Below, piece by piece: positions 40,026 to 59,272 of a stretch of DNA of 64,000 bases. The number at the start of each line of letters is the position of its first letter. Position 1 is the stretch's first letter. A program made the position numbers and the translations under genes. The stretch spans positions 49,164 through 113,163 of the forward strand of contig JAHITY010000072.1 in assembly GCA_018817165.1 (NCBI GenBank), in the 5' to 3' direction. The DNA is from Candidatus Omnitrophota bacterium. GTDB lineage: Bacteria > Omnitrophota > Gorgyraeia > B26-G9. The notes below the pieces were generated by a model that saw only the letters and a program-made list of their open reading frames with translations, had not been told where the DNA came from and ran no database searches.

Positions 40026-40433
40026 ATGAAGCTTAAATCAAACAAAGGATTTAGTCTGGCAGAAGTTTTAGTCGCGGGATTCGTCGCGGCAGTTGCTTTT
40101 GTGGCAATTTTAGGGACATTAAGTAATATCACATTGCTCAATGAGCTTAATCAGGAAAAGACTTTTGCCGCAATGCACGCGCAGTATCTTCTTGAGGAAA
40201 TCCGTGACGCGGCATTTGCTAATCTTGAGAATAATATTAATAATGGGAATTGGGATTTTACGCTTAATCAGCTTGCGGCAAATCCCTATAATTTTACCGG
40301 ACTAAATTTAGAAAGTGTAGATACAATGGTTGTTAATACGGGCAATCCTTTACAAGTAAGGTTGACGGTTAATTGGACTGATCGCAGGGGATCAGCCAGG
40401 ACTTATGCTTTAGAAATGCTGAGGACAGATTAA
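40026..40433 (+). CDS. Prepilin-type (class III signal peptide) pilin/pseudopilin
   Basis: 135 aa. 'MKLKSNKGFSLAEVLVAGFVAAVAFVAIL' = K-G|F-S-L-A-E prepilin cleavage/methylation motif with Glu+5. Confidence 0.7.
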   Translation: MKLKSNKGFSLAEVLVAGFVAAVAFVAILGTLSNITLLNELNQEKTFAAMHAQYLLEEIRDAAFANLENNINNGNWDFTLNQLAANPYNFTGLNLESVDTMVVNTGNPLQVRLTVNWTDRRGSARTYALEMLRTD

Positions 40434-40904
40434 ATGAAAGGATTCACATTAGTAGAGTTAATGGTTTCTGTTTTGATAATGACGGGAATGGTCATTGGTT
40501 TGCTTGCGGCTTTTGAAGTGGGCAGAAATGTTTATGATTCTAATCAGGGTTTAATGGAAAAACAAAGGATAATCCAGCAAACAATGGGAGCAATAGTAAA
40601 AGAAATCCGGCAGTCAAAACTGGCTGATATTACAATAAGCAATGGAAATACGCGGATTGATTTTATAATTCCGACAAGTGTCAATCCTTTGACTAATTCC
40701 AGTAATATCAGGTATTCGATTTTAAATAATCAGATTGTCCGGGAGCATCCTCCGGGCAATCAGCAGGTTTTGGCAATTAATGTTGATTCTCTGATGTTTG
40801 ATTTAAGCGGCAATTTGTTGGAAATAGAAATTCAAGCGCGTATTTCATTGAGAACCGGAGATATGCTGTTTACTGTCAAGGAAAAGGTTTCTTTACGCAG
40901 CTAG
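40434..40904 (+). CDS. Prepilin-type minor pilin (PilW/PilV-like)
   Basis: 156 aa. 'MKGFTLVELMVSVLIMTGMVIGLLAAF' = G|FTLVE motif. Start abuts the preceding stop. Confidence 0.7.
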   Translation: MKGFTLVELMVSVLIMTGMVIGLLAAFEVGRNVYDSNQGLMEKQRIIQQTMGAIVKEIRQSKLADITISNGNTRIDFIIPTSVNPLTNSSNIRYSILNNQIVREHPPGNQQVLAINVDSLMFDLSGNLLEIEIQARISLRTGDMLFTVKEKVSLRS

Positions 40905-40912
40905 CGGGGGTT

Positions 40913-42130
40913 ATGATGAACAAAAAAGGTTTTGCCATGGCTTTGAATTTGGTGATTATTGTTGTTTTAACAATTCTTGCCAGCGCTTTACTTTTACGCG
41001 GAGCTGTAGCCAGTAAGCGAACCGAAGGGTTTGTTGATCAGACACGGGCATTTTGGATGGCTGAATCCGGAGTTGCCAAGGCAGTATACGCGCTTAATAA
41101 TGGATCATGGGCAGGCTGGACAGCGCAGGGAAACAATAGAATATTGCAGGGATCGCTGGGTACTGCGGGCGATTATGATATCACGGTTTATAATTATCTG
41201 AGCGCTAATGCGCGGATTGAATCAACCGGATTTTTTCCCAGCAGAATAGCGGCAAGTCCGATCACGCGTAAGGTTGAAGTGCTTGTATCCAAAGCGAATA
41301 ATTCCTTGTTTAAGTACGCGGCTTTTGCAGAAGGCACGCTGTCGCTTAGCGGTCAGGGTTCAACTGATAGTTATGATTCATCTTTAGGGGCTTATGGCGG
41401 AGCGAATATTGGTTCGGATGGAGATGTGGGCAGTAATACGGAGTTTTCCGGCTCAGGCCAAGCTTATGTTGATGGTGATATAAATATTCCAGTAGGCGAA
41501 ACAGCTCCGGCGGCAAATTATTATTCCGGAACAGTCATTGAAGAAGATAAGCCGACTTTAACCACAGTTTCTGTGCCAGCAAATCTAACAACATTAACTA
41601 ATCTGGGCAGTATTTCCAGCACAACTACTTTGAATCCCGGAGATTATCAATACTGGATGATTAATGTAGCTAGTCATACGACAGTGACACTTGTTGGTCC
41701 AATAAATCTTTATTTAACTGGAACAACAGCGATAAAAGTAGCTGGGCAAGCCGAAATTTATATTGACCCAGCCAGCGCTGGTCCGGTAAATATTTATTTT
41801 GACGGAGACGTGAGCTTAACTGGACAAGGGATAACTAATGGCACCAGTGTTCCGGCAAATCTGATTTTGTATGGAACCGGGACAACTCAAGACATTAAAT
41901 TATCAGGTCAAGGTGATTTTTACGGAGGGATATATGCTCCTAATTCAGATCTGAAACTTACCGGGCAAGGTTCATTGCTGGGCGCTTTTGTGGGGAATAC
42001 TGTTACAATTAGCGGCCAAGGCGGGATTCATTATGATACTCAATTAGGCTCAGCAGGCGCTTCAGCGGTAAATACTTATTCAATTACCAGTTGGAGTGAT
42101 ACGCAGAATTCTTTTGGAATTTTTCAGTGA
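40913..42130 (+). CDS. PilX-N-domain minor pilin-like protein with a GQG-repeat C-terminal region (possible tip/adhesin component)
   Basis: 405 aa. 'MMNKKGFAMALNLVIIVVLTILASALLLRGAVASKRTEGFVDQTRAFWMAESGV' resembles the PilX_N consensus (KGFALVLALLVLVVLTLLG...R...A..AAEAG). C-terminal repeated 'LSGQG', 'LTGQG', 'ISGQG'. Confidence 0.55.
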   Translation: MMNKKGFAMALNLVIIVVLTILASALLLRGAVASKRTEGFVDQTRAFWMAESGVAKAVYALNNGSWAGWTAQGNNRILQGSLGTAGDYDITVYNYLSANARIESTGFFPSRIAASPITRKVEVLVSKANNSLFKYAAFAEGTLSLSGQGSTDSYDSSLGAYGGANIGSDGDVGSNTEFSGSGQAYVDGDINIPVGETAPAANYYSGTVIEEDKPTLTTVSVPANLTTLTNLGSISSTTTLNPGDYQYWMINVASHTTVTLVGPINLYLTGTTAIKVAGQAEIYIDPASAGPVNIYFDGDVSLTGQGITNGTSVPANLILYGTGTTQDIKLSGQGDFYGGIYAPNSDLKLTGQGSLLGAFVGNTVTISGQGGIHYDTQLGSAGASAVNTYSITSWSDTQNSFGIFQ

Positions 42131-42241
42131 TTTATTTTAGGAATATTTTTTTGTGCCGCGGATACAGCTTATGCTCAGAGAAATATTAGCAGCACTAACA
42201 CATTTGGCACAGCCTAAGGCATTAATTTCATAAATTTCCCG

Positions 42242-42275
42242 AGTATCGACGCGTGGCGGCTGATACTTTTTTTTC
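42242..42275 (+). terminator. Candidate intrinsic terminator after the plus-strand pilin genes
   Basis: 'AGTATCgacgcgtggcggctGATACTtttttttt': 6-bp stem, GC-rich loop region with an inner CGC/GCG stem, then an 8-T run. Confidence 0.4.
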
Positions 42276-42341
42276 TGCTCTGATTTCTTGTCTTTTTTAT
42301 CCATGTTTTTTATTATACATTATTTGGGAATATTCAACAAA

Positions 42342-44123
42342 CTATTTTTTCACTGGTTGATCCTGATGGGTTTTTCTGGTTTTATTTTTTGTTTTCTTTT
42401 TGGTCTTTTTTTGTGAGTCAGGATTAACCACAGTTTCTACTGCTGCTTTTAATTCTTCTGTGGTCTGCGCTTGTCCGATTATATTCAGTTTATCTTTAGA
42501 AGCTTGAGTCATTTCCTGAAGTTCTTTGATGCTTTTAAGGATTGTCGGGCTGAGGAAAATAAGCAATTCTGTTTTTAATGTTGTTTTTTCGGTTTTCTTA
42601 AATAAATTTCCAATAAAAGGAATATCGCCAAGTAAAGGTACTTTATTTTCAATAATGCTATCATTGTCGCGCATTAATCCGCCAAGAACAACAGTATGGC
42701 CATCAGGAACCATTACAGTGGCATCAGCTTCCCGCTTATTGATTATGCTGGCATCAAATAATGTTTTAGCGCTCAAGTCTTTTAATTCAGCATGCACTTT
42801 TAAATTAACAAATCCATCTTGACTTATTCGGGGCGTGACTTTAAGGCCTAGGCCAACATCTTGATATTTGAAATTAACAGTAGTGACATTATTTACCAAA
42901 TCAGTGACTGATGATTCAATGATTGGAATTTCCTGTCCTACAGTGATAGATGATTCCTGATTATTAGAGGCTAAAATCCGGGGGGTGGAAAGCACTTTTG
43001 TGTTTTCCTGAGTTTTTAAAATAAAGCCTAAAAGATTCGTCCGTTCATTTTGATTTAAAATTCGATAAGTGAATCCTTGAGTCGAGGCTTCAGTGGATAA
43101 ATTAAGCAGGGAGTGAAAGATGTTTTGATCCTTGCTACCGCTTTTAATTCCTTCGGTTGTCAGCGTGGGGTTAGTTGAAGACGCGTATTCAACTCCCATG
43201 GTCAGGTCATCGCTGAGGGTGACATCCATCAGGATGACTTCAATCATTGCCTGAGGAGGGAAAACATCAAGTTTTGTGATCAAACGCTCAATCGCCGGAA
43301 AATTAACCAAAGCAGTAGCTACTACTATTGAATTTGTTTCTTCTTCGGAATAAGCTTCAATCGCGCCAAAAATTTCTAAAGGAATATCGCCTAAGCCCAG
43401 CTCGCTAAATTCCGGGTATCTGGCATCTTTATCTTCTTTGGACAGATCATTTAATATTTTAGAAATTTTAACAGCATCGCCATAATTAACTACAAAGGTT
43501 TTAACCTGCATGCTTGCTGGCAGAGGCCGGTCGATTTGCGAGATAATAGTAGCTAAACGTTTAATATTAGAAGAAGTATCTGTAATTACTATAGTATTTG
43601 TCCGCTCATTAGCCAGGATATTGCCATGTTTGCCGATTAAGGATTGGAGCTCATTTTTAATTTTGATCGCTGAAGAGTATTTTAGAGGCATTACTTGAGT
43701 GATAACAATATCCTGATCTTTTATAAATCCCGGCCAGCTTCCGACTTGGACTTCAACGCTTGATTGCTTAATGTCAGCTACCGGGACAATTTTCAAAGTT
43801 TCTCCTGACTTTATGACTGTAAATCCGCGGATCATTAGCGCGCTTTCCAACACATTTATTACTGTTTCAGGTTTTACTTTTTCCATGCTTACTATGGAGA
43901 TAGTTCCTTTAAGATTTTCATTGGGAATTATTATTGTACCGGTTAAATCGCCTAATACCTTAATTGCTTGATTTATATCCGTATCTTGGAAGCTCAAAGA
44001 AATTAGATTTTCAGACTCAGGGTTGTTTTCAGAAGTTTCCCTGTATTCCTGGGAAAAAATATTCACTGGATTGGAAAAAAGTAAGAGAAAAATCCCGATA
44101 CAGATTAATTTATAATATTTCAT
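42342..44123 (-). CDS. pilQ: Secretin (PilQ/GspD family outer-membrane channel)
   Basis: 593 aa. Signal peptide. C-terminal secretin signature 'VPDGHTVVLGGLMRDNDSIIENKVPLLGDIPFIGNLFK'. Lys-rich C-terminal tail. Downstream of pilMNOP-like genes on the same strand. Confidence 0.9.
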   Translation of the reverse strand: MKYYKLICIGIFLLLFSNPVNIFSQEYRETSENNPESENLISLSFQDTDINQAIKVLGDLTGTIIIPNENLKGTISIVSMEKVKPETVINVLESALMIRGFTVIKSGETLKIVPVADIKQSSVEVQVGSWPGFIKDQDIVITQVMPLKYSSAIKIKNELQSLIGKHGNILANERTNTIVITDTSSNIKRLATIISQIDRPLPASMQVKTFVVNYGDAVKISKILNDLSKEDKDARYPEFSELGLGDIPLEIFGAIEAYSEEETNSIVVATALVNFPAIERLITKLDVFPPQAMIEVILMDVTLSDDLTMGVEYASSTNPTLTTEGIKSGSKDQNIFHSLLNLSTEASTQGFTYRILNQNERTNLLGFILKTQENTKVLSTPRILASNNQESSITVGQEIPIIESSVTDLVNNVTTVNFKYQDVGLGLKVTPRISQDGFVNLKVHAELKDLSAKTLFDASIINKREADATVMVPDGHTVVLGGLMRDNDSIIENKVPLLGDIPFIGNLFKKTEKTTLKTELLIFLSPTILKSIKELQEMTQASKDKLNIIGQAQTTEELKAAVETVVNPDSQKKTKKKTKNKTRKTHQDQPVKK

Positions 44124-44737
44124 TTTGTCCCCCTAGTGCCAGATCTTATTTGCTGGATTGTATTTGCTCTTAAAGTTGGTGGTGATAAATCTTCTTCCAT
44201 AATAACAGGTTCTTGTTCAATATTGATTTCTGTTTTTTCAGTGGTAGGTTCTGAATTTTTTTGCTGAGCAGCTTGCTGGAGTTTTAATTCAAAGTCTTTT
44301 CCATCTTTTTGAATGATTATCTTATTTAGCATGATCGATTTAACGGTATAATCTTCAATAGCTTCATTAACCGAAACATAAAATCCCTTTTTTGTGCTTT
44401 TTTGCTCGACGATTGCTTTATAACCGTTTTTAATTTCAATAACTCCGGTGAGAATTAGATCTAAGCTGTCTTTTTCCTGTTTTATGTTTGTTTCAATTGG
44501 AATTGATCCAATTTCCGGTTGATCTTTTTTGGGGCGAAAAAAATTTCGCTGCTCAATAACTTTGTAATAATTGAAGGAGGCATCTTCATCAACCAGCAAG
44601 GCTGAATCAGTTGTCTGGGCATAACAGCAGCAAGATACAAGACACAAGACACAAGACACAAGAGTTGATAGTGTAAAATTTACAAAAAACGATTTCCGGT
44701 CTGCAGTTTGTGTGCTGTGAGTTATGGACTGATTCAT
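44120..44737 (-). CDS. pilP: PilP-like lipoprotein (inner-membrane pilus assembly lipoprotein); N-terminal lipobox encoded by a heptamer microsatellite
   Basis: 205 aa. Position between the pilO-like gene and pilQ. 'FTLSTLVSCVLCLVSCCCYAQ' contains an L-V-S-C lipobox, duplicated. 4-nt overlap with pilQ. Confidence 0.5.
   Translation of the reverse strand: MNQSITHSTQTADRKSFFVNFTLSTLVSCVLCLVSCCCYAQTTDSALLVDEDASFNYYKVIEQRNFFRPKKDQPEIGSIPIETNIKQEKDSLDLILTGVIEIKNGYKAIVEQKSTKKGFYVSVNEAIEDYTVKSIMLNKIIIQKDGKDFELKLQQAAQQKNSEPTTEKTEINIEQEPVIMEEDLSPPTLRANTIQQIRSGTRGTK
44632..44664. repeat. Heptamer microsatellite (ACAAGAC)x~5 inside the pilP signal-peptide coding region
   Basis: 'acaagat acaagac acaagac acaagac acaagag'. 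Reads CTTGTGT in mRNA sense and encodes 'LVSCVLCLVSC'. Confidence 0.7.
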
Positions 44738-44739
44738 GT

Positions 44740-45264
44740 TTACTGCTCCTTTAAAAATATAGTTGATATAATTAAATGACCTTTTAATAAAGCGGAACGC
44801 TCTGATTTTGGCTGCAGACTTAAGCGGTTGGCAACTAAGACAACTGATGATTTGCGCATTTCGTAGAGAAATCGGACAATATTTCCCAAATTAGCTTCCA
44901 TATTAATTTCCACGGATAATTCATTGGAAAAACCTAATTCTCTTAAAGGCTGAGGGTTCATTGATTCAATGTGGATGTTTGTTTTTCTGGCAACTTCTCC
45001 AATGGCGGTTAGAAAATTACTTTGGCCTCGCTCGGAGGGGAGTTTAGCCTGAATTTTTTTGTTCATGTTAGAATATGACTGATTCAGTGCTTCTTTTTGT
45101 TGAATGATTTTTCGGCTTTTTTCGAGCAAAGCCAGCTTTTGGTTTATCTGAGTTTTTTGTTCGTTTGATTTTCTAAGAAAAGGGCTGATTATAGAAATAT
45201 AAACCAGGCAAAGAGCAGCGATGCTGGCAATTATGAGTATAAGTTTTTTATTTTTTAGCCACAT
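44740..45264 (-). CDS. pilO: PilO-like pilus assembly protein (N-terminal TM + coiled coil + periplasmic domain)
   Basis: 174 aa. 'MWLKNKKLILIIASIAALCLVYISIISPF' TM followed by a coiled-coil 'KTQINQKLALLEKSRKIIQQKEAL'. Operon position between pilMN and pilP. Confidence 0.5.
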   Translation of the reverse strand: MWLKNKKLILIIASIAALCLVYISIISPFLRKSNEQKTQINQKLALLEKSRKIIQQKEALNQSYSNMNKKIQAKLPSERGQSNFLTAIGEVARKTNIHIESMNPQPLRELGFSNELSVEINMEANLGNIVRFLYEMRKSSVVLVANRLSLQPKSERSALLKGHLIISTIFLKEQ

Positions 45265-45265
45265 A

Positions 45266-47080
45266 TTAGTTTGCCTCTTTATTTTTTATTTTACTAATAA
45301 TTTCAAAATCAATTATTTCTTCACCCGGCAGCCCTTTTTTTCGGGTAAATAAAATTTTCACATCAGCAAAGAAGGACGAGTCATTTAAAAGTTGAGAAAA
45401 ATTAACTACTGATGAATGTGATTGGGCTATGCCTGATAAAATTACCGATTCGTTTTTTTCAAAAGTAAAATTATCGATCATAATGTCATATGGGGCAATT
45501 ATGCTTATTTCCCGTAAGATTTCCATGCAGGAATTATTAGCACCGACATAGTCTTCGATTGTTTGGATTCTGTCTTTTAATTGCGATACAATTAATAAAT
45601 CAGGTTCTAAGGCCTGTAGTTGTTTGTCGAGAGCTTTTAGACGATTATTATTTAAAGATAATAGCCAGGCCGGTAATGCGAATAAAGATATGAGCGCAAA
45701 CAGGCAAACCGCTATGTAGGTAATTTGTTTTATTTTTAAATTTTTAGCTTTTTTTGCGTGTTTAATATCTTCCGGGACAAGATTTAAATTTAAATATCCA
45801 GTATTCGGTTCTTTTTTTATTAGTCCGGTACAAAGCTGAAATTCTTGAGCGTGCTTTTCGTAATTATTGATTACCGCGGGGTTGCCATCGAAGGTCAGGG
45901 GTTTTTCCATGACAATTTTTACTTTTAGTTTTTCTCTTAAATACTCATTGAAATTTATCAAGCAAGCTCCGCCGCCACTTAAATTAAGCTGCTGAATGTC
46001 GATTTTTCCGGTATTTATCTGGAAGGATTCCAACGTGCGATTGATTTCTAATATAAGATCATCTGCCCATTTAGTTGATATTGAAGAAATATTTTTTTGA
46101 ATTTCATTAGTGTCTTGTTTTGTAATAATAATTCCATTTTCGTGCTTTAATTTTTGAGCATTATCAAAACTGAGATTAAGATTCTTACTCAGACGGAGAG
46201 TTAAATCTTTTGATCCCCAGGTAATATTTCGGCAAAAGCTAAGTTGATTGTTATTAATAATATTTATATCAGTATATGTTGCTCCAATATGGACTTGGAG
46301 ATAAATGCCTTGTTTTCTGTTTTTAGATAATGAACAGTTGTAAAGGGCAATAGAACTTGCTTTGATGCTATCAGGATATAAATTTAATGTTTCAAGCAAA
46401 TCAAGATGATCTTTTATTAACGATTTTTTGGCAGCAATAAGAATTATTTTACTTTCCGGTGACTCTTGAGAAAGAATATTATAATCCATCTCAATCTCAG
46501 AAAGGGGAAACGGTAAATGCTGTTCAGCTTCAAACACGAGCATTTTTTCTATTTCATGTTTTTGGATCGTGGGCAGACTGATGAATTTTACAATCATTGT
46601 GCTTCGGGAAAGCAGGGTATTTATTTTAGAGTTTTTAAATAAAAGATTTTTGGTGAAAGGAAGGATGCTTTTCTTGGTGAAATTATTTAGCTTTTCTACA
46701 GTATTAGTGATAATATTTGGAACCGGGATAAAAATCGCATCTTGCAGGGTAATGTTTTGTTTTTCATACTTTAAAATCAGTATTTTTATGCTGCTTGATC
46801 CGATATCGATGATAATTTGGTTGTCAGTTTTTTGCGCATTAATATTTGCCAAAAAATTATCAATAAATCTAGAGAGTCTATCAGTGTATTTGAGCGGTAC
46901 GCCTTGACTGATTTTTTTAATAAGCTGCAGCTCATCATCAGGAGTGTTAGGCTTTGTCCCTGATTTTTTTTGTTCATCTTTTTGAGTGATATCTACTTGA
47001 TGAAATAGGGCATCAAGGCCTAAGCCTTTAATTTTAGACTTAACAATATCATCTATTTTATCTTTATGCTTATCGTTCAT
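45266..47080 (-). CDS. PilM-PilN fusion protein (actin-like ATPase-fold PilM domain, then TM and PilN-like coiled-coil/periplasmic domain)
   Basis: 604 aa. 'IIIDIGSSSIKILILKYEKQ' (PilM phosphate-1-like), 'YLQVHIGATYTDINII', 'NLSGGGACLINFNEYL'. Then TM 'ITYIAVCLFALISLFALPAWLL' and coiled coil 'NRLKALDKQLQALEPDL'. Confidence 0.7.
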   Translation of the reverse strand: MNDKHKDKIDDIVKSKIKGLGLDALFHQVDITQKDEQKKSGTKPNTPDDELQLIKKISQGVPLKYTDRLSRFIDNFLANINAQKTDNQIIIDIGSSSIKILILKYEKQNITLQDAIFIPVPNIITNTVEKLNNFTKKSILPFTKNLLFKNSKINTLLSRSTMIVKFISLPTIQKHEIEKMLVFEAEQHLPFPLSEIEMDYNILSQESPESKIILIAAKKSLIKDHLDLLETLNLYPDSIKASSIALYNCSLSKNRKQGIYLQVHIGATYTDINIINNNQLSFCRNITWGSKDLTLRLSKNLNLSFDNAQKLKHENGIIITKQDTNEIQKNISSISTKWADDLILEINRTLESFQINTGKIDIQQLNLSGGGACLINFNEYLREKLKVKIVMEKPLTFDGNPAVINNYEKHAQEFQLCTGLIKKEPNTGYLNLNLVPEDIKHAKKAKNLKIKQITYIAVCLFALISLFALPAWLLSLNNNRLKALDKQLQALEPDLLIVSQLKDRIQTIEDYVGANNSCMEILREISIIAPYDIMIDNFTFEKNESVILSGIAQSHSSVVNFSQLLNDSSFFADVKILFTRKKGLPGEEIIDFEIISKIKNKEAN

Positions 47081-47837
47081 TGGCTTTTTTATCCACTTCT
47101 TTTGCTAGGGCCATAAACATTTGCGCAGCCGGATTATCCGGAGCATATTGCTGAATGCTTTGTCCGTGAATTTCCGCTTCGGGAATTTTGGGATTGCGAC
47201 AAATTCTGGAACTAAATACTTTTCGGGCAGTAAAATACTCAATGATTGCTTGCGTGATCGAAGAGTGCAAGGGAATTGATTGATCATACATATTAATAAC
47301 TACTCCCATAAAGCGGACATAATGTTCAAGATCATCTTTAACTTTTAAAATTGTGCTCATCAGCATGCTCATCCCTTTTAAAGCGTAACTGCTGGGCTCA
47401 ATCGGAACCAGTAAATCAGTGCTGGCGACAATCGCATTAACTGTGAGTATGCCCAAAGAGGGCGGGCAGTCAATTATGATGTAATCATATTTGGATATTT
47501 CCGGGCGGATAGATTTTCTCAGTTTAAAGGGACGGGAAATATCCGAAGCAAGCTCAGTTTCCGCGCCGGATAGACTGATATTAGCCGGAGCAATAAAAAG
47601 ATTTTTAAGTTGATTGGGAATAATGATATCGCTTAAAGGGATATCATTGAGCAAGGCATCATAAATCGTATTATCCAGTTTATTAGTATTAATACCCAGT
47701 CCATCTGATGAGTTTCCCTGAGGATCTAAGTCTATAACCAAGACTCTGTATCCGAGTACAGCCAGGGAAGCTGATAAATTAATGGTGGTAGTGGTTTTGC
47801 CGACACCACCTTTTTGATTGGTCACAGCAATAATCAT
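47070..47837 (-). CDS. ParA/MinD-family P-loop ATPase co-operonic with the pilus assembly genes
   Basis: 255 aa. Deviant Walker A 'NQKGGVGKTTTTINLSASLA', 'VLVIDLDPQGNSS', 'DYIIIDCPPSLG'. Overlaps pilMN by 11 nt and the upstream HTH gene by 1 nt. Confidence 0.85.
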   Translation of the reverse strand: MIIAVTNQKGGVGKTTTTINLSASLAVLGYRVLVIDLDPQGNSSDGLGINTNKLDNTIYDALLNDIPLSDIIIPNQLKNLFIAPANISLSGAETELASDISRPFKLRKSIRPEISKYDYIIIDCPPSLGILTVNAIVASTDLLVPIEPSSYALKGMSMLMSTILKVKDDLEHYVRFMGVVINMYDQSIPLHSSITQAIIEYFTARKVFSSRICRNPKIPEAEIHGQSIQQYAPDNPAAQMFMALAKEVDKKANER

Positions 47838-48055
47838 TATTGCTCTCTTTTTTTATGTTTATTAAGATCCTGTTTAATTTCCTCAGCAAATAAGGCTTTA
47901 ATCTTTAAAACATCTTCTATTGTATAATAACGCCATTTTTTATCATCGCGTCTGGCTTTGGGCAAAATCCCCCAAGTCTCATAGTTCTTGATGGTTTGAA
48001 TCGAGACATTTAGTTCTTTTGCCAGATTATTTATTTTAAGGTTAACTTTTTTCAT
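47837..48055 (-). CDS. Small MerR-like HTH DNA-binding protein
   Basis: 72 aa. 'INNLAKELNVSIQTIKNYETWGILPKARRDDKKWRYYTIEDVLKIKAL' resembles the MerR-type HTH followed by a wing ('R...G.R.Y'). Confidence 0.5.
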   Translation of the reverse strand: MKKVNLKINNLAKELNVSIQTIKNYETWGILPKARRDDKKWRYYTIEDVLKIKALFAEEIKQDLNKHKKREQ

Positions 48056-48096
48056 AATTGTTAAATTTAGCGACTTTTGATATTAAACCCAATAAA

Positions 48097-48125
48097 ATAG
48101 TACCTTATTTTGATTATTTTGTCAA
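48097..48125 (-). promoter_or_regulatory. Candidate sigma-70 promoter for the minus-strand merR-parA-pilMNOPQ operon
   Basis: Minus-strand reading 'cTTGACAaaataatcaaaataaggTACTATttt': -35 TTGACA (48120..48125), 17-nt spacer, -10 TACTAT (48097..48102), ~40 nt upstream of the start codon at 48055. Confidence 0.35.
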
Positions 48126-48184
48126 GAACTTGTTGAGTTTTAAATTTATAAACTTGCACATGGTGTCCTGTAATAACGCGGCCA

Positions 48185-48370
48185 GGCAAAAACACATCTT
48201 TTCGCTAAGCCTGAGCCTGCATCGTGCAGGCCCAGCCGCGCATTCTCACTATTTTGACATCCTTGTCAAAATTACGTTCGAAAGCGCCGCTCAAAGAGAA
48301 TTTTTGCCCAGCGGAGCGACCGTCAGCTATCAACATTGCGAACTTGTGAAAGATGATGGGGAAATTTTTA
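48185..48370 (+). repeat. Dispersed structured repeat family 2, copy A (core 48185..48313 plus conserved tail)
   Basis: Core 'GGCAAAAAcac.tcttttcgctaagcctgaGCCTGCAtcgTGCAGGCccagccgcgc.ttctcactaTTTTGACAtccTTGTCAAAAttacgttcgaaagcgccgctcaaagagaaTTTTTGCCcagcg'. Terminal GGCAAAAA/TTTTTGCC inverted repeat and two internal perfect hairpins. Copies at 55475..55603 (+) and 60184..60312 (-). Confidence 0.65.
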
Positions 48371-48589
48371 AGCTTCTCACAAATTTAGGTAAATACGTTT
48401 TGTATTTTTGGGGACCCTTTAGGGCACGAGGACCTGTATGAGCCCTTGCAAAATAAAAGAAAGGCGTTTACGCCAACTTTAAAGGGCGAGTTCCGCAAGT
48501 GCCAAGAATACAAAGCGGATTTACCGTTATTGATGTTTACATCAATAAAATTTGTGTCAGCGTAAAATTTGCCTGTTATCTTGTTATCA

Positions 48590-48729
48590 ACTTATCCAAG
48601 GCGGTCTAGAATCAATTATTTATGCTCATTCTCGCATTACGTCCTGTAATGCTCCGAGGATGAATCTCTGATTTTGCCGGTCCTGACAAAATCAGGCTTC
48701 AAACCCGCTAAAATAATTATTCTAGCCCT
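48590..48729 (+). repeat. Dispersed structured repeat family 1, copy 2
   Basis: ~90% identical to 8140..8280. Hairpin 1 shows compensatory substitutions (gcTttacA / tgtaaAgc versus gcAttacG / tgtaaTgc). Confidence 0.6.
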
Positions 48730-48844
48730 TTAATAATAAGTTACTAATTACAAATTTTAAGTTTTTGCTTTTTACTATTAGTTATCGACAATCAGCCATT
48801 AGCCCTAAGCTTTTACCTTGTGACCTTTGTCCTTTTTAATCACA

Positions 48845-48873
48845 TTGACCGACAGAAGTTATTTTGTTATAAT
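48845..48873 (+). promoter_or_regulatory. Candidate strong sigma-70 promoter for pilB (extended -10)
   Basis: 'TTGACCgacagaagttattTTGtTATAAT': -35 TTGACC (48845..48850), 17-nt spacer, TG-n-TATAAT (48865..48873), ~50 nt upstream of the pilB ATG. RBS 'aaaggatg'. Confidence 0.45.
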
Positions 48874-48923
48874 CAAATAAAGAAATTATGGACAAAAGGT
48901 AAATCTAAAGGGATGGTCAAAGG

Positions 48924-50642
48924 ATGAGTGTTAATGCCCGTTTTCAGTTTATTACTAATATTTTGGTGGAAAAAGGGATTTTAACCCAAAATAAAGTATC
49001 TGAGTTTCAGGATCGATTTGAGTCAAGTTTTCCAAAAACTCATGAAGAACTTGAAACTTTTATAATCCAAAAAGGACTTGTCAGTGAAAATGATTTGCTG
49101 CTTGCTTATAGCAAACATTTGAATATTCCAATCAAAGATTTAACTCAAATTGAAATTGATCCGCAAGCGATTTCCTTAATCCCGGCAAAATTCGCTAATC
49201 GTAATAAAGTTATTGCTACTGAAAAACAAGGGCTTAATCTTGTGGTAGCAATGCGCAATCCATTTGCTATTCATGTGATTGATGAGCTTAAAGTTTTAAC
49301 AAATTATAAAATCACTTGTGTATTAGCTAGAATTGAAGGGATTGAAACCGCGATTAGAATCCATTATGGGGTTGGCGCAGAGACAGTAGAAACATTGGTT
49401 CTTGCTTCAAAGGAAAATATTCAAGCTGAACAGGCATTATTAAAACAAGGGGCGGAATCGCCTGAAAAAATGGCGGAAAATGCTTCGATTATAAACTATG
49501 TAAATCAGATATTACTTGAAGCTTATCAAAAAAATGCGACGGATATACACATTGAACCTTTTGATAGTAAATTAAGAATTCGCTATCGGATAGATGGAGT
49601 ATTACAGGAAGCTAAGACATCTCCGGATATAAAACAATTGCAGGTGTTTATTATATCCAGGTTGAAAATTATGGCGGGAATTAATATTGCTGAACGCAGA
49701 AGACCTCAGGATGGTAGGTGTAAGGTAAAATTAGCCGGGGAGGATGTAGACCTTAGGCTGTCAACTTTTCCTACTCTTTTTGGTGAAGGCGTAAGCATTC
49801 GTTTATTAAGCAAGAAAATGCTTGATTTTGGAATTAATCAGCTGGGGTTTCCGCAGGAAAGCATAGAAAAACTAAAAGCAATTTTAAAAAAACCAAATGG
49901 GATTATTTTGGTAACCGGACCAACCGGCTGTGGTAAGACAACAACGCTTTATTCTTGTTTGAGTTATATTAATGATACAAAAGTTAATATAATTACTTTG
50001 GAAGACCCGATCGAATATCAGCTTGAAGGGATTAATCAAATCCAGATAAATCCGCAGGTTGATTTGACTTTTGCCACAGGATTGCGGTCAATCCTACGCC
50101 AAGACCCAGATATTATAATGGTGGGGGAAATCCGGGATATTGAAACAGCGCAAATATCTATTCGCGCGGCTTTAACTGGTCATCTTATGTTCAGCACTTT
50201 GCATACAAATGATGCTTTATCATCAATAACCCGATTACTTGATTTAGGCATAGAACCCTACCTGGTAAGCGGAACGGTTAGAGCGGTTATTGCCCAAAGG
50301 TTGGTCAGAAAAATATGCAAACAATGTAAGGTAGAATATAAACCTGAGCGAAATATCCTGGATGCTCTGGGATTTGCCGTGAATACAGATATGATCTTTT
50401 ACAAAGGAACGGGATGCGCTGAATGCAGTGATACGGGATTTAGCGGAAGAATCGGTATTTATGAAATATTGATTGTCGATGAAAAATTAGGAGCTTGTAT
50501 TGTTTCCGGAGGATCGGCTAAACAGTTAAAAGAACAAGCAATTAAAGATAATATGATCAGTTTGAAAATTGATGGCTTAGATAAAGTCAAACAAGGAATA
50601 ACAACTATCGAAGAAGTATTAAGAGTCACGGAACAGGAATAG
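48924..50642 (+). CDS. pilB: Type IV pilus assembly / type II secretion ATPase (GspE/PilB family)
   Basis: 572 aa. N-terminal GspE_N-like domain. Walker A 'VTGPTGCGKTTTLYS', Asp box 'IITLEDPIEY', His box 'MFSTLHTNDA'. Tetracysteine 'CKQCK...CAECSDTG' Zn motif. Confidence 0.9.
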   Translation: MSVNARFQFITNILVEKGILTQNKVSEFQDRFESSFPKTHEELETFIIQKGLVSENDLLLAYSKHLNIPIKDLTQIEIDPQAISLIPAKFANRNKVIATEKQGLNLVVAMRNPFAIHVIDELKVLTNYKITCVLARIEGIETAIRIHYGVGAETVETLVLASKENIQAEQALLKQGAESPEKMAENASIINYVNQILLEAYQKNATDIHIEPFDSKLRIRYRIDGVLQEAKTSPDIKQLQVFIISRLKIMAGINIAERRRPQDGRCKVKLAGEDVDLRLSTFPTLFGEGVSIRLLSKKMLDFGINQLGFPQESIEKLKAILKKPNGIILVTGPTGCGKTTTLYSCLSYINDTKVNIITLEDPIEYQLEGINQIQINPQVDLTFATGLRSILRQDPDIIMVGEIRDIETAQISIRAALTGHLMFSTLHTNDALSSITRLLDLGIEPYLVSGTVRAVIAQRLVRKICKQCKVEYKPERNILDALGFAVNTDMIFYKGTGCAECSDTGFSGRIGIYEILIVDEKLGACIVSGGSAKQLKEQAIKDNMISLKIDGLDKVKQGITTIEEVLRVTEQE

Positions 50643-50913
50643 AAACTGTGATATCCTGAAATAGATTTACATAAAACAGAGAACAGAAAAAAATTACTAA
50701 TTTCTAAACTCTAAATAAACTCCAATTACTAAAGTCAAAAAAAACAAAAAGAAAAATAGAGTAAAAAGTTTGTAAAGTTATAAAGGTTGTATCAGCAGAA
50801 AAATTTGCTGATAATCTTTAGTATAGGGGCTGGAGTAGAAAATTGTCCCCGATACATAAAGGCGGTAGAGGAAACTCTATTAGAACAAAATAACAAAAAT
50901 CGAGAAATAATTA

Positions 50914-52119
50914 ATGGAAAAATTTAAGTATGATGCCCGTGATAAAGCCGGTAATAGTGTAAGCGGAATAGAACAGGCGGCTAATCGCAATCAAGTTTTG
51001 TCTAAACTGCGTCAATCAGGGCTGTTTCCGATAAACATTGAAGAAGTCTCAGGACATAATATAATAATCAAAAAAAACAAACTGCGGCTTAATGATAATG
51101 AAACAGTGTTTTTTACCCGGCAGCTTTCAAATCTTTTAGACGCAGGACTGCCTTTAGCCCAAGCTTTGAATCTCCTGACTAATCAAGCAAATAATCCTAA
51201 AATAAAAAATATATGTTCTAAATTATACACTAAGATTTCTGAAGGCGGGTATCTTTGGGAAGCATTGGGTAAGTATCCGGATGTTTTTTCTCGCGCCTAT
51301 GTCGGAATGGTTCGGGCCGCGGAAATGGGCGGCGATGTGGAAAGTGTGTTTAGCAATCTTGCTGATTTTATTGAACGGAAAAAAGAAGTCAAGGATTCGG
51401 TGATTTCAATGCTTATTTATCCAGTGATTATTTTGCTGGTAGGTATGGGCACGGTAATTTTTTTAATGACATTTATAATCCCGAAAATGGTTTTTATGTT
51501 TCAGGAGGGAGATATAGCCTTACCGGTGATCACAAAGCTTTTGATTGGCGCGAGTATGTTTTTAGCGGATTATTGGATGGGGCTTATTATTTTCGCAATT
51601 TTGATTTTGGGGGGATTGGGGAAAATTTATTCACAAACAAAAAACAAATTAATTCTGGATAATTTTGTTTATAAATTACCTTTAATCGGAGAAATACTGA
51701 GAAAAATAGCATTTGCCCGGTTTTGCTATATTGTCAGTCTTTTATCCGCTAATGGAATGTCAATTCTGGATTGTCTGGATATTAGCCGCGATGTTCTTCC
51801 GAATAAAATGCTCAAAGATTCGGTTGATGCGATAATAAGCCGAGTAAAGAGCGGCAGTTCTTTTTCAGTCAGTATGAAGCAGGAAACTATTTTTCCTCTG
51901 GTTATGGTGGATATGATCGCGGTAGGAGAACAAACCGGACGTTTAGAAAAAACTCTGCGGAAAGTCGCTGATTCGTTTGATAAACAAATAAAAGAAGACC
52001 TAAGGCGGCTGCTGAATGTCTTAGAGCCAATGATAATATTATTTATCGCGTTTATAGTCGGCGCATTGGTCGCGGCTGTGCTGCTTCCGATTTTTCAATT
52101 TAACCTCCAGACATTCTAA
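50914..52119 (+). CDS. pilC: Inner-membrane platform protein (GspF/PilC family)
   Basis: 401 aa. Two T2SSF-like repeats ('FFTRQLSNLLDAGLPLAQAL' and 'FARFCYIVSLLSANGMSILDCL'), 3 TM helices, typical size. Confidence 0.85.
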   Translation: MEKFKYDARDKAGNSVSGIEQAANRNQVLSKLRQSGLFPINIEEVSGHNIIIKKNKLRLNDNETVFFTRQLSNLLDAGLPLAQALNLLTNQANNPKIKNICSKLYTKISEGGYLWEALGKYPDVFSRAYVGMVRAAEMGGDVESVFSNLADFIERKKEVKDSVISMLIYPVIILLVGMGTVIFLMTFIIPKMVFMFQEGDIALPVITKLLIGASMFLADYWMGLIIFAILILGGLGKIYSQTKNKLILDNFVYKLPLIGEILRKIAFARFCYIVSLLSANGMSILDCLDISRDVLPNKMLKDSVDAIISRVKSGSSFSVSMKQETIFPLVMVDMIAVGEQTGRLEKTLRKVADSFDKQIKEDLRRLLNVLEPMIILFIAFIVGALVAAVLLPIFQFNLQTF

Positions 52120-52497
52120 ATGGTAAGTACGGATATGAAGAAGCGGAATAAAAAAGGATTTACTCTCTTAGAAGTAATGCTGGCTTTATCAATTATCAGT
52201 ATTTCTTTAGTGGTTATTATTAATTCTTTTTCTCAGGCAATTGCCGTCAAATCCGCTGTGTCGAATTATACCAAAGCAATGTTTCTTTCGCAAAAAAAGT
52301 TATTCGAGATCAATATTAACAATCTAAGTACAGTAGAAAAACAAGGGAAATTTATACAACCATTTGAACAATTTAATTGGCAGATTAATTCGGATAGCAC
52401 TAATTTTAGTGAATTGGCTAAAGTCGATTTGACTATTGAATGGAATCAACAGGGAAAATCAAAAAATATCCAGGTTTCGGCGATTATGGAGAAATGA
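52120..52497 (+). CDS. Prepilin-type pseudopilin (GspG/H-like)
   Basis: 125 aa. 'KRNKKGFTLLEVMLALSIISISLVVII' = G|FTLLE motif. Start abuts the pilC stop. Confidence 0.7.
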   Translation: MVSTDMKKRNKKGFTLLEVMLALSIISISLVVIINSFSQAIAVKSAVSNYTKAMFLSQKKLFEININNLSTVEKQGKFIQPFEQFNWQINSDSTNFSELAKVDLTIEWNQQGKSKNIQVSAIMEK

Positions 52498-53110
52498 TTT
52501 GCTTAAAAAAAGTAGAGCGTTTAGTTTAATCGAATTGCTTTTAGCAACTGCGATAATGGTGATGATATTCGCGGCAGTATATAGCAGCTTTTCTTTGGGA
52601 ATACGGACTTGGAAAAGAGTTAATATTAAAATCGCGAATAATGCGACTGATCTGCTTATTCCTTTAACCAGACAGTTACGCTGCGCTTATCTTGCTCCAG
52701 GGCAGGATCCTGATTTTGTATTTCAAGGCAGTTTGTCAGCAATTAGCTTTGTGTCAACAGCGGTAATAAATGATGATATCTATAGAGACAATGTTACTGA
52801 TTTGCAAAAAGTTTCATGCCGGATCAGGGCTGATGAGGATACAGGACAAAACGCTTTTATTTATGAATCATATGATATCCTGGGGGAAAATAAGGAAAAT
52901 TTTAAGCAAATTAAATTGTCAAATATGATCAAATCTATTTCTTTTGCTTTTTATGATGGAGAAAAATGGCTAAAAGCTTGGAATTCTACTAAGAATTTAC
53001 CTCAGGCAGTAATGATCAGAGCTGATTTTCAAGAGGGAATTTATCAAGATTCTTTTGAAACAGTGGCTCAAATACATTGCGCGAATAAAGGGGTAATGGA
53101 TGATTTATGA
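52436..53110 (+). CDS. Prepilin-type pseudopilin (GspJ/I-like); the true start is probably the in-frame TTG near 52499 (M/L-LKKSRA|FSLIELLLA)
   Basis: ORF-track start overlaps the previous gene by 60 nt. 'SRAFSLIELLLATAIMVMIFAAVY' is a prepilin N-terminal motif (Ala at -1, Glu+5). Confidence 0.55.
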   Translation: MNGINRENQKISRFRRLWRNDLLKKSRAFSLIELLLATAIMVMIFAAVYSSFSLGIRTWKRVNIKIANNATDLLIPLTRQLRCAYLAPGQDPDFVFQGSLSAISFVSTAVINDDIYRDNVTDLQKVSCRIRADEDTGQNAFIYESYDILGENKENFKQIKLSNMIKSISFAFYDGEKWLKAWNSTKNLPQAVMIRADFQEGIYQDSFETVAQIHCANKGVMDDL

Positions 53111-54081
53111 TTAAAAATTTAACCAGACAAAAGGCCTCGGTTTTAATTATTACATTATTTGTAGTGTTTTTTTTATCAGGGATTGCTTTGAGTATTTCTC
53201 AGGCAATGCGGATCAACGCGAAAATTATCAGCCGACATGTTCAGAATCAAAAGTCTTTAAATATCGCTGAGTCAGCAGTTTTACTGGCGCTGGCTGAACT
53301 TAAAACAGATAAAAAAGATAATAATTATGATGCTTTTCAGGATGGCTGGTATGGGAAATTCCAGGAGCGAGCAAAAATCAAAAGTTTTAAATTTAAAAAC
53401 AACGAGAATAGTGATATTGGTAAATATAGCATTAGTATTTCTGATGAGTCCGCTAGAATGAATATTAATACCATATCAGTTGAGATAATCGGTAATCTTA
53501 TAAATCAATTATCTAAAACTGATAATAGCAAACTTATTCAAGCAGTCGCGGATTACAGAATTGATTTAGGCCAAAAACAAATAGTGAAAAGTGTTTATCA
53601 GCTTTTAAAAATAAAGCTAATCGATAAATCAGTGTTTTGGGGTGAAGATACTAATGATAATAATCAATTGGATCCGTGGGAAGATGATCAAGCGGATAGC
53701 CAGCCTGATGATAATGGAAATAATTTTTTAGATTTAGGGGTAAAGGATTTTTTTACAGTATTTACTGATGGGAAGATAAATTTAAACACTGTATCAGAAA
53801 AAGTTCTTTTAAGTTTGCCGGGGATGACTGAGGAAGGGGCTCAGGCAATTATTAATTTTCGAAAAAACCAGCCTTTTGCGAATGAAAAAGATTTGGAGAA
53901 TATTACTTCGATTGGCAAACAGACAAGTCAGTTTATTATGCGCTGGGGTTCAGTGCGTTCGGATATTTTTAGGATTATTGTAACTGCTCAGGCGATTGAT
54001 GCTAAGAACTATAAGCAGATCATCGCGGTTGTCGACCGTTCCCAGTTGCCGATAAAAATTCTTTATTGGAGAGAAAACTGA
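53107..54081 (+). CDS. GspK-like minor pseudopilin (N-terminal TM, HhH-type motifs)
   Basis: 324 aa. 'ASVLIITLFVVFFLSGIALSISQA' TM. 'INLNTVSEKVLLSLPGMTEEGAQAIINFR' helix-hairpin-helix-like as in GspK. Size and position after pseudopilins. Confidence 0.5.
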   Translation: MIKNLTRQKASVLIITLFVVFFLSGIALSISQAMRINAKIISRHVQNQKSLNIAESAVLLALAELKTDKKDNNYDAFQDGWYGKFQERAKIKSFKFKNNENSDIGKYSISISDESARMNINTISVEIIGNLINQLSKTDNSKLIQAVADYRIDLGQKQIVKSVYQLLKIKLIDKSVFWGEDTNDNNQLDPWEDDQADSQPDDNGNNFLDLGVKDFFTVFTDGKINLNTVSEKVLLSLPGMTEEGAQAIINFRKNQPFANEKDLENITSIGKQTSQFIMRWGSVRSDIFRIIVTAQAIDAKNYKQIIAVVDRSQLPIKILYWREN

Positions 54082-56880: not shown

Positions 56881-56882
56881 AT

Positions 56883-58394: not shown

Positions 58395-58550
58395 TAAATC
58401 AGGTTCAATGGAATAACGGGTATTTTTCTGTTTATTAGCTTAAGACTTATGGTATAATAAATCAAATAAAATTTTGGATAATATAATCAGAATAAAAGTT
58501 ATTTTTTAGCAAATCGACAAAGAGTTTGCAGTTAAAATACAAGGAAATCA

Positions 58551-59252
58551 ATGATTCTTTCAGCGCATCAACCTCAATATCTGCCTTGGCTTGGATATTT
58601 TGACAAGATTGATAAAAGTGATTGCTTTGTTTTTTTGGATACTGTACAATATAAAAAGAGGGAATTCCAAAATCGCAATAAAATTCGCACCCAAACAGAT
58701 TCTATTTGGTTGACTGTACCAGTAAAGACAAAAGGGGCTAGCCTGCAAAGGTTAAGTGATGTGCAGATTGACAATGAAATAGATTGGCAAAAAGAGCATA
58801 TTAATAGTCTGCAAACTTGGTATGCCGCAGCTCCTTATTTTAGTGATTATTTTTCTTTTTTTAAAGCTGTTTATTCTGAGAAATGGGAAAAATTAATTGA
58901 CTTAAATATTCATATTATTAAGTTTATTTTAGATGTTCTGAATATTAAAACTAAAATTTACCTTGAGTCAGAGATAAAAACAACAAATGTAAGCACTTTG
59001 AGAATAATTGAACTGTGCAAAAAGCTTGAGGCAGATACTTATTTATCAGGGATTGGCGGTAAAGAATATTTAGATATTGCTGAATTTACGAAAAGTAGAA
59101 TTGATTTGGAGTATCAGAATTTTGGGCATCCTAATTATTTGCAGCAGTTTACATCGGAGAAAAAGGATTTTTATCCATATATGTCGATAGTGGATCTATT
59201 GTTTAATGCTGGTCCAAAAAGTATGGAAATATTAAGAAAAAAGATTAGCTAA
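58551..59252 (+). CDS. WbqC-like family protein (O-antigen/polysaccharide cluster-associated)
   Basis: 233 aa. 'MILSAHQPQYLPWLGYFDKIDKSDCFVFLDTVQYKKREFQNRNKI' matches the conserved WbqC-like N-terminus (QP-YLPW-GYF...D-FV-LD-VQ). Confidence 0.7.
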   Translation: MILSAHQPQYLPWLGYFDKIDKSDCFVFLDTVQYKKREFQNRNKIRTQTDSIWLTVPVKTKGASLQRLSDVQIDNEIDWQKEHINSLQTWYAAAPYFSDYFSFFKAVYSEKWEKLIDLNIHIIKFILDVLNIKTKIYLESEIKTTNVSTLRIIELCKKLEADTYLSGIGGKEYLDIAEFTKSRIDLEYQNFGHPNYLQQFTSEKKDFYPYMSIVDLLFNAGPKSMEILRKKIS

Positions 59253-59272
59253 AATTAAAACCAAGGAAGGTT

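Follow-up and report, generated by a model that had tools for sequence, protein, structure and literature searches.

What is a ParA-type ATPase doing in the middle of an operon for an envelope machine? This question is raised by a 64,000-nucleotide stretch of contig JAHITY010000072.1 (positions 49,164 to 113,163, assembly GCA_018817165.1) from Candidatus Omnitrophota bacterium, the whole of which is here called the window. Its positions 40026-54081 hold a gene cluster for a machine of the type II secretion system/type IV pilus (T2SS/T4P) kind. There, the gene of a 255-aa ParA ATPase (47070-47837, minus strand) overlaps by 11 nt the start of a gene encoding a 604-aa fusion of the platform proteins PilM and PilN (45266-47080, minus strand). 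The original prediction described a machine of this type in two divergent operons, with ParA and a MerR-like helix-turn-helix (HTH) protein embedded among its genes, and we found that embedding retained in 14 distinct loci. Our analysis leads us to favour, with moderate confidence only, a reading in which ParA would act on the platform through a peptide in the N-terminal tail of the fusion, to position, partition or gate the machine.

The ParA ATPase and the tail of PilM-PilN

Judged by its sequence, ParA is of the Soj type. Its best family models in NCBIfam were those of partition RepA (120 bits) and ParA (111 bits), with archaeal MinD also among the best and BcsQ at 65 bits. The best match in the PDB was Myxococcus xanthus ParA (8RAY, 212 bits), followed by Thermus Soj, and the protein is about 48% identical to ordinary Soj of Firmicutes and Actinobacteria. 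This contradicts the initial impression that ParA is reminiscent of CpaE/TadZ. TadZ/CpaE models were absent from the best 25 of the 29 NCBIfam matches, and a CpaE/TadZ identity is ruled out by the family scores for this 255-aa protein, which has no receiver-like N-terminal domain. MinD-like membrane targeting was also rejected, as the sequence reveals no obvious amphipathic C-terminal helix. In a search of 5.8 billion proteins, ParA fell into a compact clade of 37 clusters, specific to Omnitrophota, whose members are 94-54% identical to it, after which identity drops abruptly to about 48%.

Look-ups of this clade, together with a scan of GTDB genomes with the PilM-PilN alignment, provided the 14 distinct loci. 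The order (MerR)-ParA-PilMN-GspM-GspC-GspD is kept in every one of them, at ParA identities from 94% down to 54%, and ParA always lies directly upstream of the fusion, either overlapping it by 8-41 nt or standing 3-4 nt apart. A MerR gene stands in front of ParA everywhere but in the two most divergent loci, L005 and L007. As both of these retain ParA-PilMN without it, the link between ParA and the small HTH protein that had been suggested is not a necessary one, and the MerR-like protein is dispensable for the pairing.

The partner protein is composed of a tail (residues 1-85), a PilM actin-like domain (87-420), a transmembrane (TM)/coiled-coil helix (437-512) and a PilN domain (518-598), as delimited by Pfam and NCBIfam matches and by an AlphaFold2 (AF2) model built from 24 family members. 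The model is confident from residue 87 on, with a predicted local distance difference test (pLDDT) score of about 90 in the PilM domain and 33-56 in the tail, which is thus modelled as flexible and unpacked against PilM. In Foldseek searches the cytoplasmic domain matched Pseudomonas aeruginosa PilM (5eou, E 5e-25) and its Thermus thermophilus counterpart (2ych, TMt 0.81), while the match to GspL/EpsL was much weaker (about E 3e-10, TMt 0.51-0.56); weak T2SSL matches are given by orthologues of the fusion. The 'LNLVP' peptide of PilN stands at residues 432-436, with L434 and P436 invariant; in type IVa pilus (T4aP) systems this N-terminal peptide of PilN binds PilM. Since a PilM-type fold and the PilN peptide are both retained, together with the PilN domain, the protein is a literal PilM-PilN fusion, as had been proposed, in a GspL-like bitopic architecture. 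Its single TM segment (455-478) carries basic residues on the N-terminal side, and the tail is therefore cytoplasmic.

Within this tail lies the motif KGLGLDALFHQVD, which is invariant in all 24 clusters of the PilM-PilN family. Over residues 10-35 the full motif reads [LI]xx[IVA]V[KRQH][SA][KR][IMF]KGLGL[DE]ALFH[QL]VDxxxK[DE], in a family that spans 100% to 34% identity. The fusion has 49 invariant columns, 13 of which are found inside residues 13-34, and the tail motif is its most conserved segment. The closest homologues outside the family are ordinary PilMs, in which no extension precedes the actin fold. A profile of 36 positions built from the motif, run with HMMER against 1.84 billion representative proteins, returned 22 matches at E <= 1e-3, namely 21 family members or fragments and one chance repeat protein; no other protein family in this collection carries the motif. 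Furthermore, each ParA-bearing locus holds exactly one instance of it, always paired in the 14 loci with an upstream ParA of the clade, and three fused PilM(N) controls without the motif (L017-L019) have no ParA neighbour. Residues 13-35 (V..[KR].KGLGLDALFH.VD...KD; 46976-47044, minus strand) are accordingly our candidate for a ParA-binding peptide. A second, semi-conserved element of the tail, L.LI.KLK.G.P at residues ~48-62 (~46895-46939, minus strand), is predicted to be helical.

Chromosomal ParB engages ParA through an N-terminal peptide, and it is this peptide that the tail motif appears to resemble. From 120 retrieved ParBs, among which the examples of Bacillus subtilis (MAKGLGKGINALFNQVD) and P0201 (MSKRLGRGLDALFSQVD) were confirmed, a reference set of 79 unique N-peptides was obtained. 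An ungapped position-specific scoring matrix (PSSM) of ParB gave 12.9 bits on residues 18-31 of the fusion (KGLGLDALFHQVDI), against a background maximum of 4.9 over 66,746 windows, and 17.0 bits on GLDALFHQVDI, against a background maximum of 15.7 over about 66,000 windows. Alignment of the motif with the ParB profile by hhalign, in the register VKSKIKGLGLDALFHQVDITQ versus kk.LGrGLeaLf, scored 21.4 (probability 85%, P 5.8e-6), a value that 1,900 column permutations never attained (mean 7.2, sd 2.0, maximum 17.1).

The other side of the presumed contact is altered too. The ParB-binding pocket of M. xanthus ParA comprises V116, L150, L152, L155, L187 and L192, and chemical-shift changes were observed around residues 176-192 (PMC12462528). 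We aligned ParA to 8RAY and set the 37 sequences of the clade against 78 canonical Soj proteins. K9, K14, D36, D38 and D123, which make up the deviant Walker A motif KGGxxK[ST] and the catalytic Asp, are invariant in all 37. Clade-fixed changes affect two of the six experimentally defined pocket residues: the equivalent of V116 is T, A or S where canonical Soj has I, V or L, and the equivalent of L187 is Lys in 36 of the 37 members, while 90% of canonical Soj proteins have Leu there. A cluster of substitutions fixed in the clade also spans residues 147-172 (QC to EP, E154K, L156M, Q158M, N171E). A ParB-binding surface changed in this manner is what co-adaptation of a new interface between ATPase and partner would look like.

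With the ParABS systems, the locus shares a putative G-x-G-L-[DE]-A-L-F partner motif in an unstructured N-terminal tail, the gene order of ParA followed by the motif-bearing partner, and the deviant Walker A and catalytic Asp residues of ParA. It differs from them in that the partner is a membrane platform protein without a ParB/Srx CTPase domain or an HTH, in the sequence KGLG in place of LG[RK]G of ParB, and in the replacement of the pocket residues V116 and L187. No parS site was identified, and Pfam scans detected no protein with a ParBc domain in the window.

Positioning, gating and competing explanations

What sets the machine apart is a built-in ParA module, in which a Soj-type ParA shares a transcript with the platform protein PilM-PilN and is translationally coupled to it. 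In the mechanism that we propose, ATP-bound ParA dimers, most likely bound to the nucleoid, would engage two platform tails at the pocket of the dimer interface, and stimulated ATP hydrolysis would release ParA from the tails. Such a cycle could distribute or site nascent platforms, or gate their assembly, and the few machines of a very small cell could in this way be sited so that each daughter inherits one. ParA systems are known to distribute plasmids, carboxysomes and chemoreceptor clusters. Within a coupling of ParA to the tail, we favour positioning over gating only modestly. The original proposal that ParA positions the machine thereby gains a concrete handle, the ParB-like motif on the N-terminus of PilM-PilN, whereas the positioning itself stays a suggestion.

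Several results weigh against a coupling through the tail. In comparison with L-G-[RK]-G-L of ParB, the K-G-L-G-L of the fusion has its basic and aliphatic residues exchanged. In the ParB register, the central Arg/Lys that ATPase stimulation requires corresponds to Leu, and L11 of ParB to Lys; the peptide therefore cannot bind exactly as ParB does. A hidden Markov model (HMM) of the ParB N-peptide ranked the PilM-PilN tails at the top of 1,215 local open reading frames (ORFs), but with only 3-4 bits (E 3-6). Searching the tail peptide against PDB sequences with phmmer produced a chance match only, a tblastn comparison of it with 7.3 Gb of plasmid sequence found nothing at E <= 10 in a search space too large for a 30-mer, and five tail peptides retrieved no ParB model from NCBIfam, whose models probably miss the ParB tail. 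An AF2 prediction of ParA fused to the tail, run as a monomer and without a peptide alignment, gave no confident docking (motif pLDDT ~55). The DNA-binding Arg of M. xanthus ParA (R238), whose B. subtilis counterpart we take to be R189 of Soj, is K217 here, and the position is K or R in only 27 of the 37 clade members, so nucleoid binding is not assured. Finally, an assembled envelope-spanning machine would be hard to move, and any action of ParA would have to precede docking of the platform to the secretin.

The MerR-type protein (72 aa, 47837-48055, minus strand), which heads the operon, is highly conserved and consists of a bare winged HTH, without coiled coil or effector domain. It is weakly matched (E 0.0026) by positions 34-98 of TIGR03453, the N-terminal HTH of RepA-type ParA, and this suggests that it may be the N-terminal HTH of a type Ia ParA in detached form, with an autoregulatory role. 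A conserved promoter of sigma70 type lies in front of it (48066-48139, minus strand), with the -35 box TTGACA at 48125-48120, a 17-bp spacer and the -10 box TACTAT at 48102-48097; in all loci the merR promoter has the form TTGACA, 17-bp spacer, TAnnnT. In the window it is flanked by the dyad AACTCAACAAG / TTTATTGGGT, which reads AACTCAACAAG ... TTTGTTGAGT in relatives and makes this segment a candidate operator, and a conserved leader box, AAAAGTCGCTAAA, is located 3' of it. The arrangement of promoter, dyad and leader box upstream of merR fits an autoregulated operon that starts at merR, and the MerR-like protein most likely acts as its autoregulator. 

Alternatively, ParA and the MerR-like protein could constitute a separate, DNA-directed module for partition or regulation that is merely co-transcribed with the machine. 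The HTH protein would then be the DNA-binding partner of ParA, and the tail would bind something else, for instance the N-domain of GspE or a signalling protein. Together with the weak fit to a partition-type HTH, the conserved dyad speaks for a separate module, as do the closeness of ParA to chromosomal Soj and the lack of confident docking of the tail on ParA in the AF2 monomer. On the other hand, such a module does not account for the ParA-PilMN coupling kept where the MerR gene is absent (L005, L007), for the strict co-occurrence of motif and ParA, for the statistical likeness of the motif to ParB, or for changes that fall on the partner surface of ParA and spare the catalytic core. Moreover, no repeat array resembling a centromere was seen in the merR-gspE intergenic region. 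We consider this explanation unlikely.

Less probable still is that ParA serves as a switch of assembly or activity, in which ATP-dependent binding of the tail would gate the recruitment of GspE or couple the machine to the cell cycle or to the state of the nucleoid. A loose parallel is FlhG, which controls flagellar number. The co-occurrence and motif evidence given for positioning applies equally to a switch; an envelope-spanning machine is not likely to be carried along a gradient, and the incomplete conservation of the DNA-binding residue of ParA would also be easier to understand. However, Soj-type ParAs that keep the basic residue generally act on the nucleoid, the sequence has no feature specific for FlhG/MinD such as a C-terminal membrane-targeting helix, and the data do not separate gating from placement. 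As for an ordinary T2SS/T4aP cluster, with ParA and the HTH protein as incidental neighbours and the tail as a lineage-specific linker, the generic NCBI annotation and the frequency of incidental gene neighbours could be cited for it, but it is very improbable and already disfavoured by gene order and overlap kept in 14 loci, down to 54% ParA and 34% PilM-PilN identity, and by a tail motif that is the most conserved segment of the fusion.

Returning to the coupling of ParA to the platform tail, its origin can be imagined as the exaptation of an ancestral parA-parB operon. The 5' end of parB, with the coding sequence of the ParA-binding peptide, would have been fused to pilM-pilN, parA would have stayed upstream, and the pocket of ParA would have co-adapted. 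This would have given rise to a nucleoid-based ParA system that is the first with an envelope-spanning secretion or pilus machine as cargo, partitioned between the daughters of an ultra-small cell, or, conversely, a chromosome tethered to the envelope in place of ParB. We put this scenario forward as a doubtful one.

Among the ParA/MinD cargo systems, a ParA linked to its platform by a ParB-like peptide seems to be a variant not described before. Of the known systems, TadZ/CpaE, BcsQ and VirC1, the only secretion-related cases listed in a survey, share with our locus a ParA/MinD-family ATPase that is encoded in a secretion or pilus cluster and is thought to place the apparatus (PMC11407121). 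They represent another subfamily, and a candidate partner peptide can be named in our case. That the N-terminal region of a cargo-bound partner engages the ATPase is a general principle of ParA/MinD systems (PMC11407121). In McdA-McdB, which positions carboxysomes, a nucleoid-type ParA and a cargo-bound partner with N-terminal engagement are likewise combined. PpfA-TlpT positions chemoreceptor clusters by means of a ParA-type ATPase. The difference from McdA-McdB and PpfA-TlpT is that the cargo here would be an envelope-spanning machine, with the peptide as part of a structural subunit and not of a separate adaptor.

A mosaic machine with two pseudopilin sets

The ORF map of the window places all 14 genes of the machine where the original prediction had them, and the Pfam and NCBIfam models, with equivalog cut-offs taken from NCBIfam, agree with prepilins, pilB, pilC, pseudopilins and a gspK-like gene on the plus strand and with the series from the MerR-HTH to the secretin on the minus strand. 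The minus-strand junctions, described as overlapping throughout, are tight: neighbouring genes overlap by 1, 11 and 4 nt or stand 1-2 nt apart. The names of two components had to be changed: the 205-aa protein called pilP fits GspC models (TIGR01713, E 5e-10) and not PilP, and in the 405-aa protein labelled PilX-N-like, PilX_N is absent at E <= 0.01 and the N-terminus is a weak GspK match. A conserved 55-aa ORF (42137-42304, minus strand), 3' of the secretin, had been overlooked. Identical database entries exist for ParA (MBU1044166.1, 'AAA family ATPase'), for the fusion (MBU1044165.1, 'type IV pilus assembly protein PilM') and for the HTH protein (MBU1044167.1, 'MerR family transcriptional regulator'), all from a 121,640-bp contig of a metagenome-assembled genome of Candidatus Omnitrophota.

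The secretin (42342-44123, minus strand) is of GspD type. It passes the equivalog cut-off of TIGR02517 (372.6 bits, cut-off 351.35), while the PilQ model TIGR02515 remains below its own (233 bits, cut-off 284), and Pfam recognises type_II_gspD_N0, two Secretin_N domains and Secretin, without AMIN. The bitopic protein of GspC/PilP class (205 aa, 44120-44737, minus strand) possesses one TM segment and only the HR-like region, without PDZ, and also matches Pfam T2SSC (E 1e-3). It and the PilO/GspM homologue (174 aa, 44740-45264, minus strand) are closest to the GspC and GspM models, respectively, both under cut-off. In the divergent operon, the assembly ATPase of PilB/GspE class (48924-50642, plus strand) scores 590.8 bits with the GspE model (cut-off 630) and 600.8 bits with the PilB model (cut-off 675). 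Its N-domain is of MshEN type, and a c-di-GMP-binding MshEN motif was discarded as too weak (17 bits, cut-off 38). The platform protein GspF/PilC (50914-52119, plus strand) has the GspF model as its top match (371 bits, cut-off 424).

Minor pseudopilins are encoded in two sets that are both I-, J- and K-like. The one behind gspF (52120-54081, plus strand) includes a GspI-like protein (52120-52497; TIGR01707 43.5 bits, cut-off 44.35), a GspJ-like protein (52436-53110), whose TTG start is doubtful and probably too far upstream, the true start probably being further downstream, and a GspK-like protein with an HHH_3 domain (53107-54081), all under the equivalog cut-offs. The set on the side of the giant gene described below starts with a GspI/XpsI-like protein of 135 aa (40026-40433, plus strand) and a ComGF/GspJ-like protein of 156 aa (40434-40904, plus strand). 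Both have prepilin-type N-termini with the motif G-F-[ST]-L-x-E and Pfam N_methyl matches of 17 and 18 bits (cut-off 21.2). It ends in an adhesin-like subunit, the 405-aa protein (40913-42130, plus strand), in which a GspK-like, hydrophobic N-terminus without Glu5 is fused to a beta-helical DUF7305/pAdhesive_15 domain with GQG repeats, a candidate for an adhesive tip. This trio is limited to the window and its closest relatives, L008 and L009. None of the minor pseudopilins was recognised as GspH by NCBIfam. As originally stated, a retraction ATPase and a prepilin peptidase are absent: Pfam scans of every ORF of at least 150 aa revealed no PilT, GspO/PilD or GspG in the 64-kb window, and the genes for GspG and GspO may be located in another part of the genome. 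There is no major pilin PilA in it either, and a scan of the window for class-III signal-peptide motifs yielded no further prepilins. In related loci, the precomputed gene tables covering 10 kb on either side contain no Pfam T2SSG match, and the control cluster L017 does show one.

Taken together, these parts make up a mosaic machine within the type IV filament superfamily, and the locus encodes an Omnitrophota-specific T2SS-like machine with a GspD secretin, GspC- and GspM-like parts, PilM-PilN, GspE/F and two pseudopilin sets. The description as a T2SS/T4aP hybrid holds in so far as a GspD-type secretin is combined with a PilM-type fold, but it is partly an artefact of naming, because PilM/N/O/P and GspL/M/C are homologous. 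With the canonical T2SS (Gsp/Eps/Pul), the machine has in common a GspD-type secretin with N0 and N domains, a GspE/F-like motor and platform and GspC-, GspM-, GspI-, GspJ- and GspK-like proteins, as well as a bitopic protein which, like GspL, joins a cytoplasmic actin-like domain to a periplasmic one. It departs from it by the absence of GspG, GspH and GspO from the window, by a full PilM fold in place of the GspL cytoplasmic domain, by a GspC without PDZ, by the extra I-J-K-like set with its adhesin-like tip, and by an operon that also holds ParA, the MerR-like protein and a small Cys peptide. With the PilMNOPQ system of T4aP (P. aeruginosa, M. xanthus, T. thermophilus), it shares the PilM fold (TMt 0.78-0.81), a PilO-like protein, the 'LNL[LV]P' N-terminal peptide and domain of PilN, and a PilB-like ATPase (601 bits). 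In contrast to T4aP, PilM and PilN are fused here, the secretin lacks AMIN and remains under the PilQ cut-off, and PilA, PilT and PilD are missing from the window. Similarity to the Amuc_1098-1102 cluster of Akkermansia does not reach equivalog level (Amuc_1101 151 bits, cut-off 650; Amuc_1098 65 bits, cut-off 750).

The gspE operon is usually divergent from the ParA operon, and insertions of 6.5-8.6 kb intervene between them in L008 and L016, which makes the merR-gspE spacer a variable spot. In the window this spacer measures 868 bp and contains a 24-nt inverted repeat (88% complementary) around 90 nt (48380-48535, plus strand), with a predicted RNA fold of -50.3 kcal/mol (z = -3.9 vs shuffles). 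No Rfam family was found in the window or in this intergenic region. A scan for sigma54 sites gave 23 matches in the window versus 29 expected, none of them upstream of merR or gspE. The gap between gspE and gspF is 271 bp in the window (50643-50913), 24 bp in L009 and 7 bp in L002.

The giant gene, the flanks and the meaning of the pairing

Next to the machine, the window encodes a giant secreted protein of 6130 aa (20248-38640, plus strand), with a Sec-type signal peptide, DUF2341, Laminin_G_3 and a C-terminal PQQ-like beta-propeller, followed by a separate propeller protein of BamB/PQQ type with a signal peptide (38878-40011, plus strand). Genes for proteins of at least 2,000 to more than 6,000 aa are found at the position of the giant gene in L002, L003, L008, L009, L016, L020 and L022. 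All eight loci with enough flank have a very large gene and a propeller gene convergent to the secretin, so the giant gene and the machine cluster are syntenic in related genomes, which is the outcome that speaks for the linkage originally supposed. The giant gene, the propeller gene and the first pseudopilin trio appear to form one transcription unit. The giant adhesin-like protein and the propeller are probably linked functionally to the machine, as substrate or partner; this is the weakest step of our interpretation, and the giant protein as a substrate of the machine is a speculation.

Giant genes beside T2SS-like loci in Omnitrophota have already been published (West-Roberts et al., bioRxiv 10.1101/2023.11.21.568195; 10.64898/2026.06.07.730766), and our cluster itself is a further example in a phylum where such loci are known. 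The published loci share with ours a gspD/E/F cluster beside a very large secreted protein, conserved across genomes; they differ in having rcpC, a peptidyl-prolyl isomerase and proteins of more than 30,000 aa with many TM helices, as compared with 6,130 aa and one signal peptide here. Term searches of these works gave no passage that deals with a gene for ParA, with a fusion of PilM to PilN or with the motif of the tail.

The last gene of the minus-strand operon is the overlooked 55-aa ORF, which encodes a basic peptide with three Cys. Its family (50-60 aa, basic, three Cys) follows the pattern …YE[IV]NALGC[AS]KC…[IL]S.S..C[IV]RG.KK[YF]S and is found 3' of the secretin in nine distinct loci of the ten with sequence beyond the secretin, namely in the window, L002 (15521-15682), L003, L008, L009, L011, L016, L020 and L022. 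The only family match is a weak one, to the sactipeptide precursor SkfA (16.6 bits, cut-off 45). Because of this match and of a radical SAM (rSAM)/SPASM gene nearby in some loci, the peptide may be a precursor of a ribosomally synthesised and post-translationally modified peptide (RiPP). In the window the rSAM/SPASM enzyme is encoded at 54164-55321 (plus strand); such a gene lies directly 3' of the gspE(-F-I-J-K) operon in the window, L002, L003 and L009, and L020 and L022 lack one within 10 kb. The window has another rSAM/SPASM gene at 14285-15322.

Several further features surround the cluster. The best sigma54-type -24/-12 match, TGGCATAGCTATTGCT (20028-20043, plus strand), lies ~205 bp upstream of the giant gene and 3' of genes for a histidine kinase and a sigma54-dependent response regulator (15319-18663). 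The response regulator of the window resembles the PEP-CTERM-box regulator, and an AAA_22 ATPase (59273-60088, plus strand) is similar to the XrtA/PEP-CTERM-associated ATPase (209 bits, cut-off 324). Two transposase-like ORFs of the IS200/IS605 Y1 type are present (18780-19631 and 62739-63902, both plus strand), the former between the sigma54 regulator and the giant gene. The flanks (62-8040 and 55717-62062) are rich in glycosyltransferase, WbqC and PIG-L genes, several of which recur in L003. Behind its gspE operon, the relative L020 (1-4003) encodes two further small MerR_1 proteins, an AAA_22 ATPase and a second secretin.

Spatial organisation in bacterial cells depends chiefly on ParA/MinD ATPases. 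If the coupling proposed here is true, a Soj-type ParA hard-wired to a T2SS/T4P-like platform by a ParB-like peptide would represent a new class of cargo, and it would illustrate the transfer of a partner peptide to a structural protein. A short peptide that can be synthesised and a 255-aa ATPase, both from an uncultured phylum, offer direct material for biochemical tests. They could also give a handle on how the nanometre-scale, possibly predatory Omnitrophota place machines that are encoded beside giant surface proteins.

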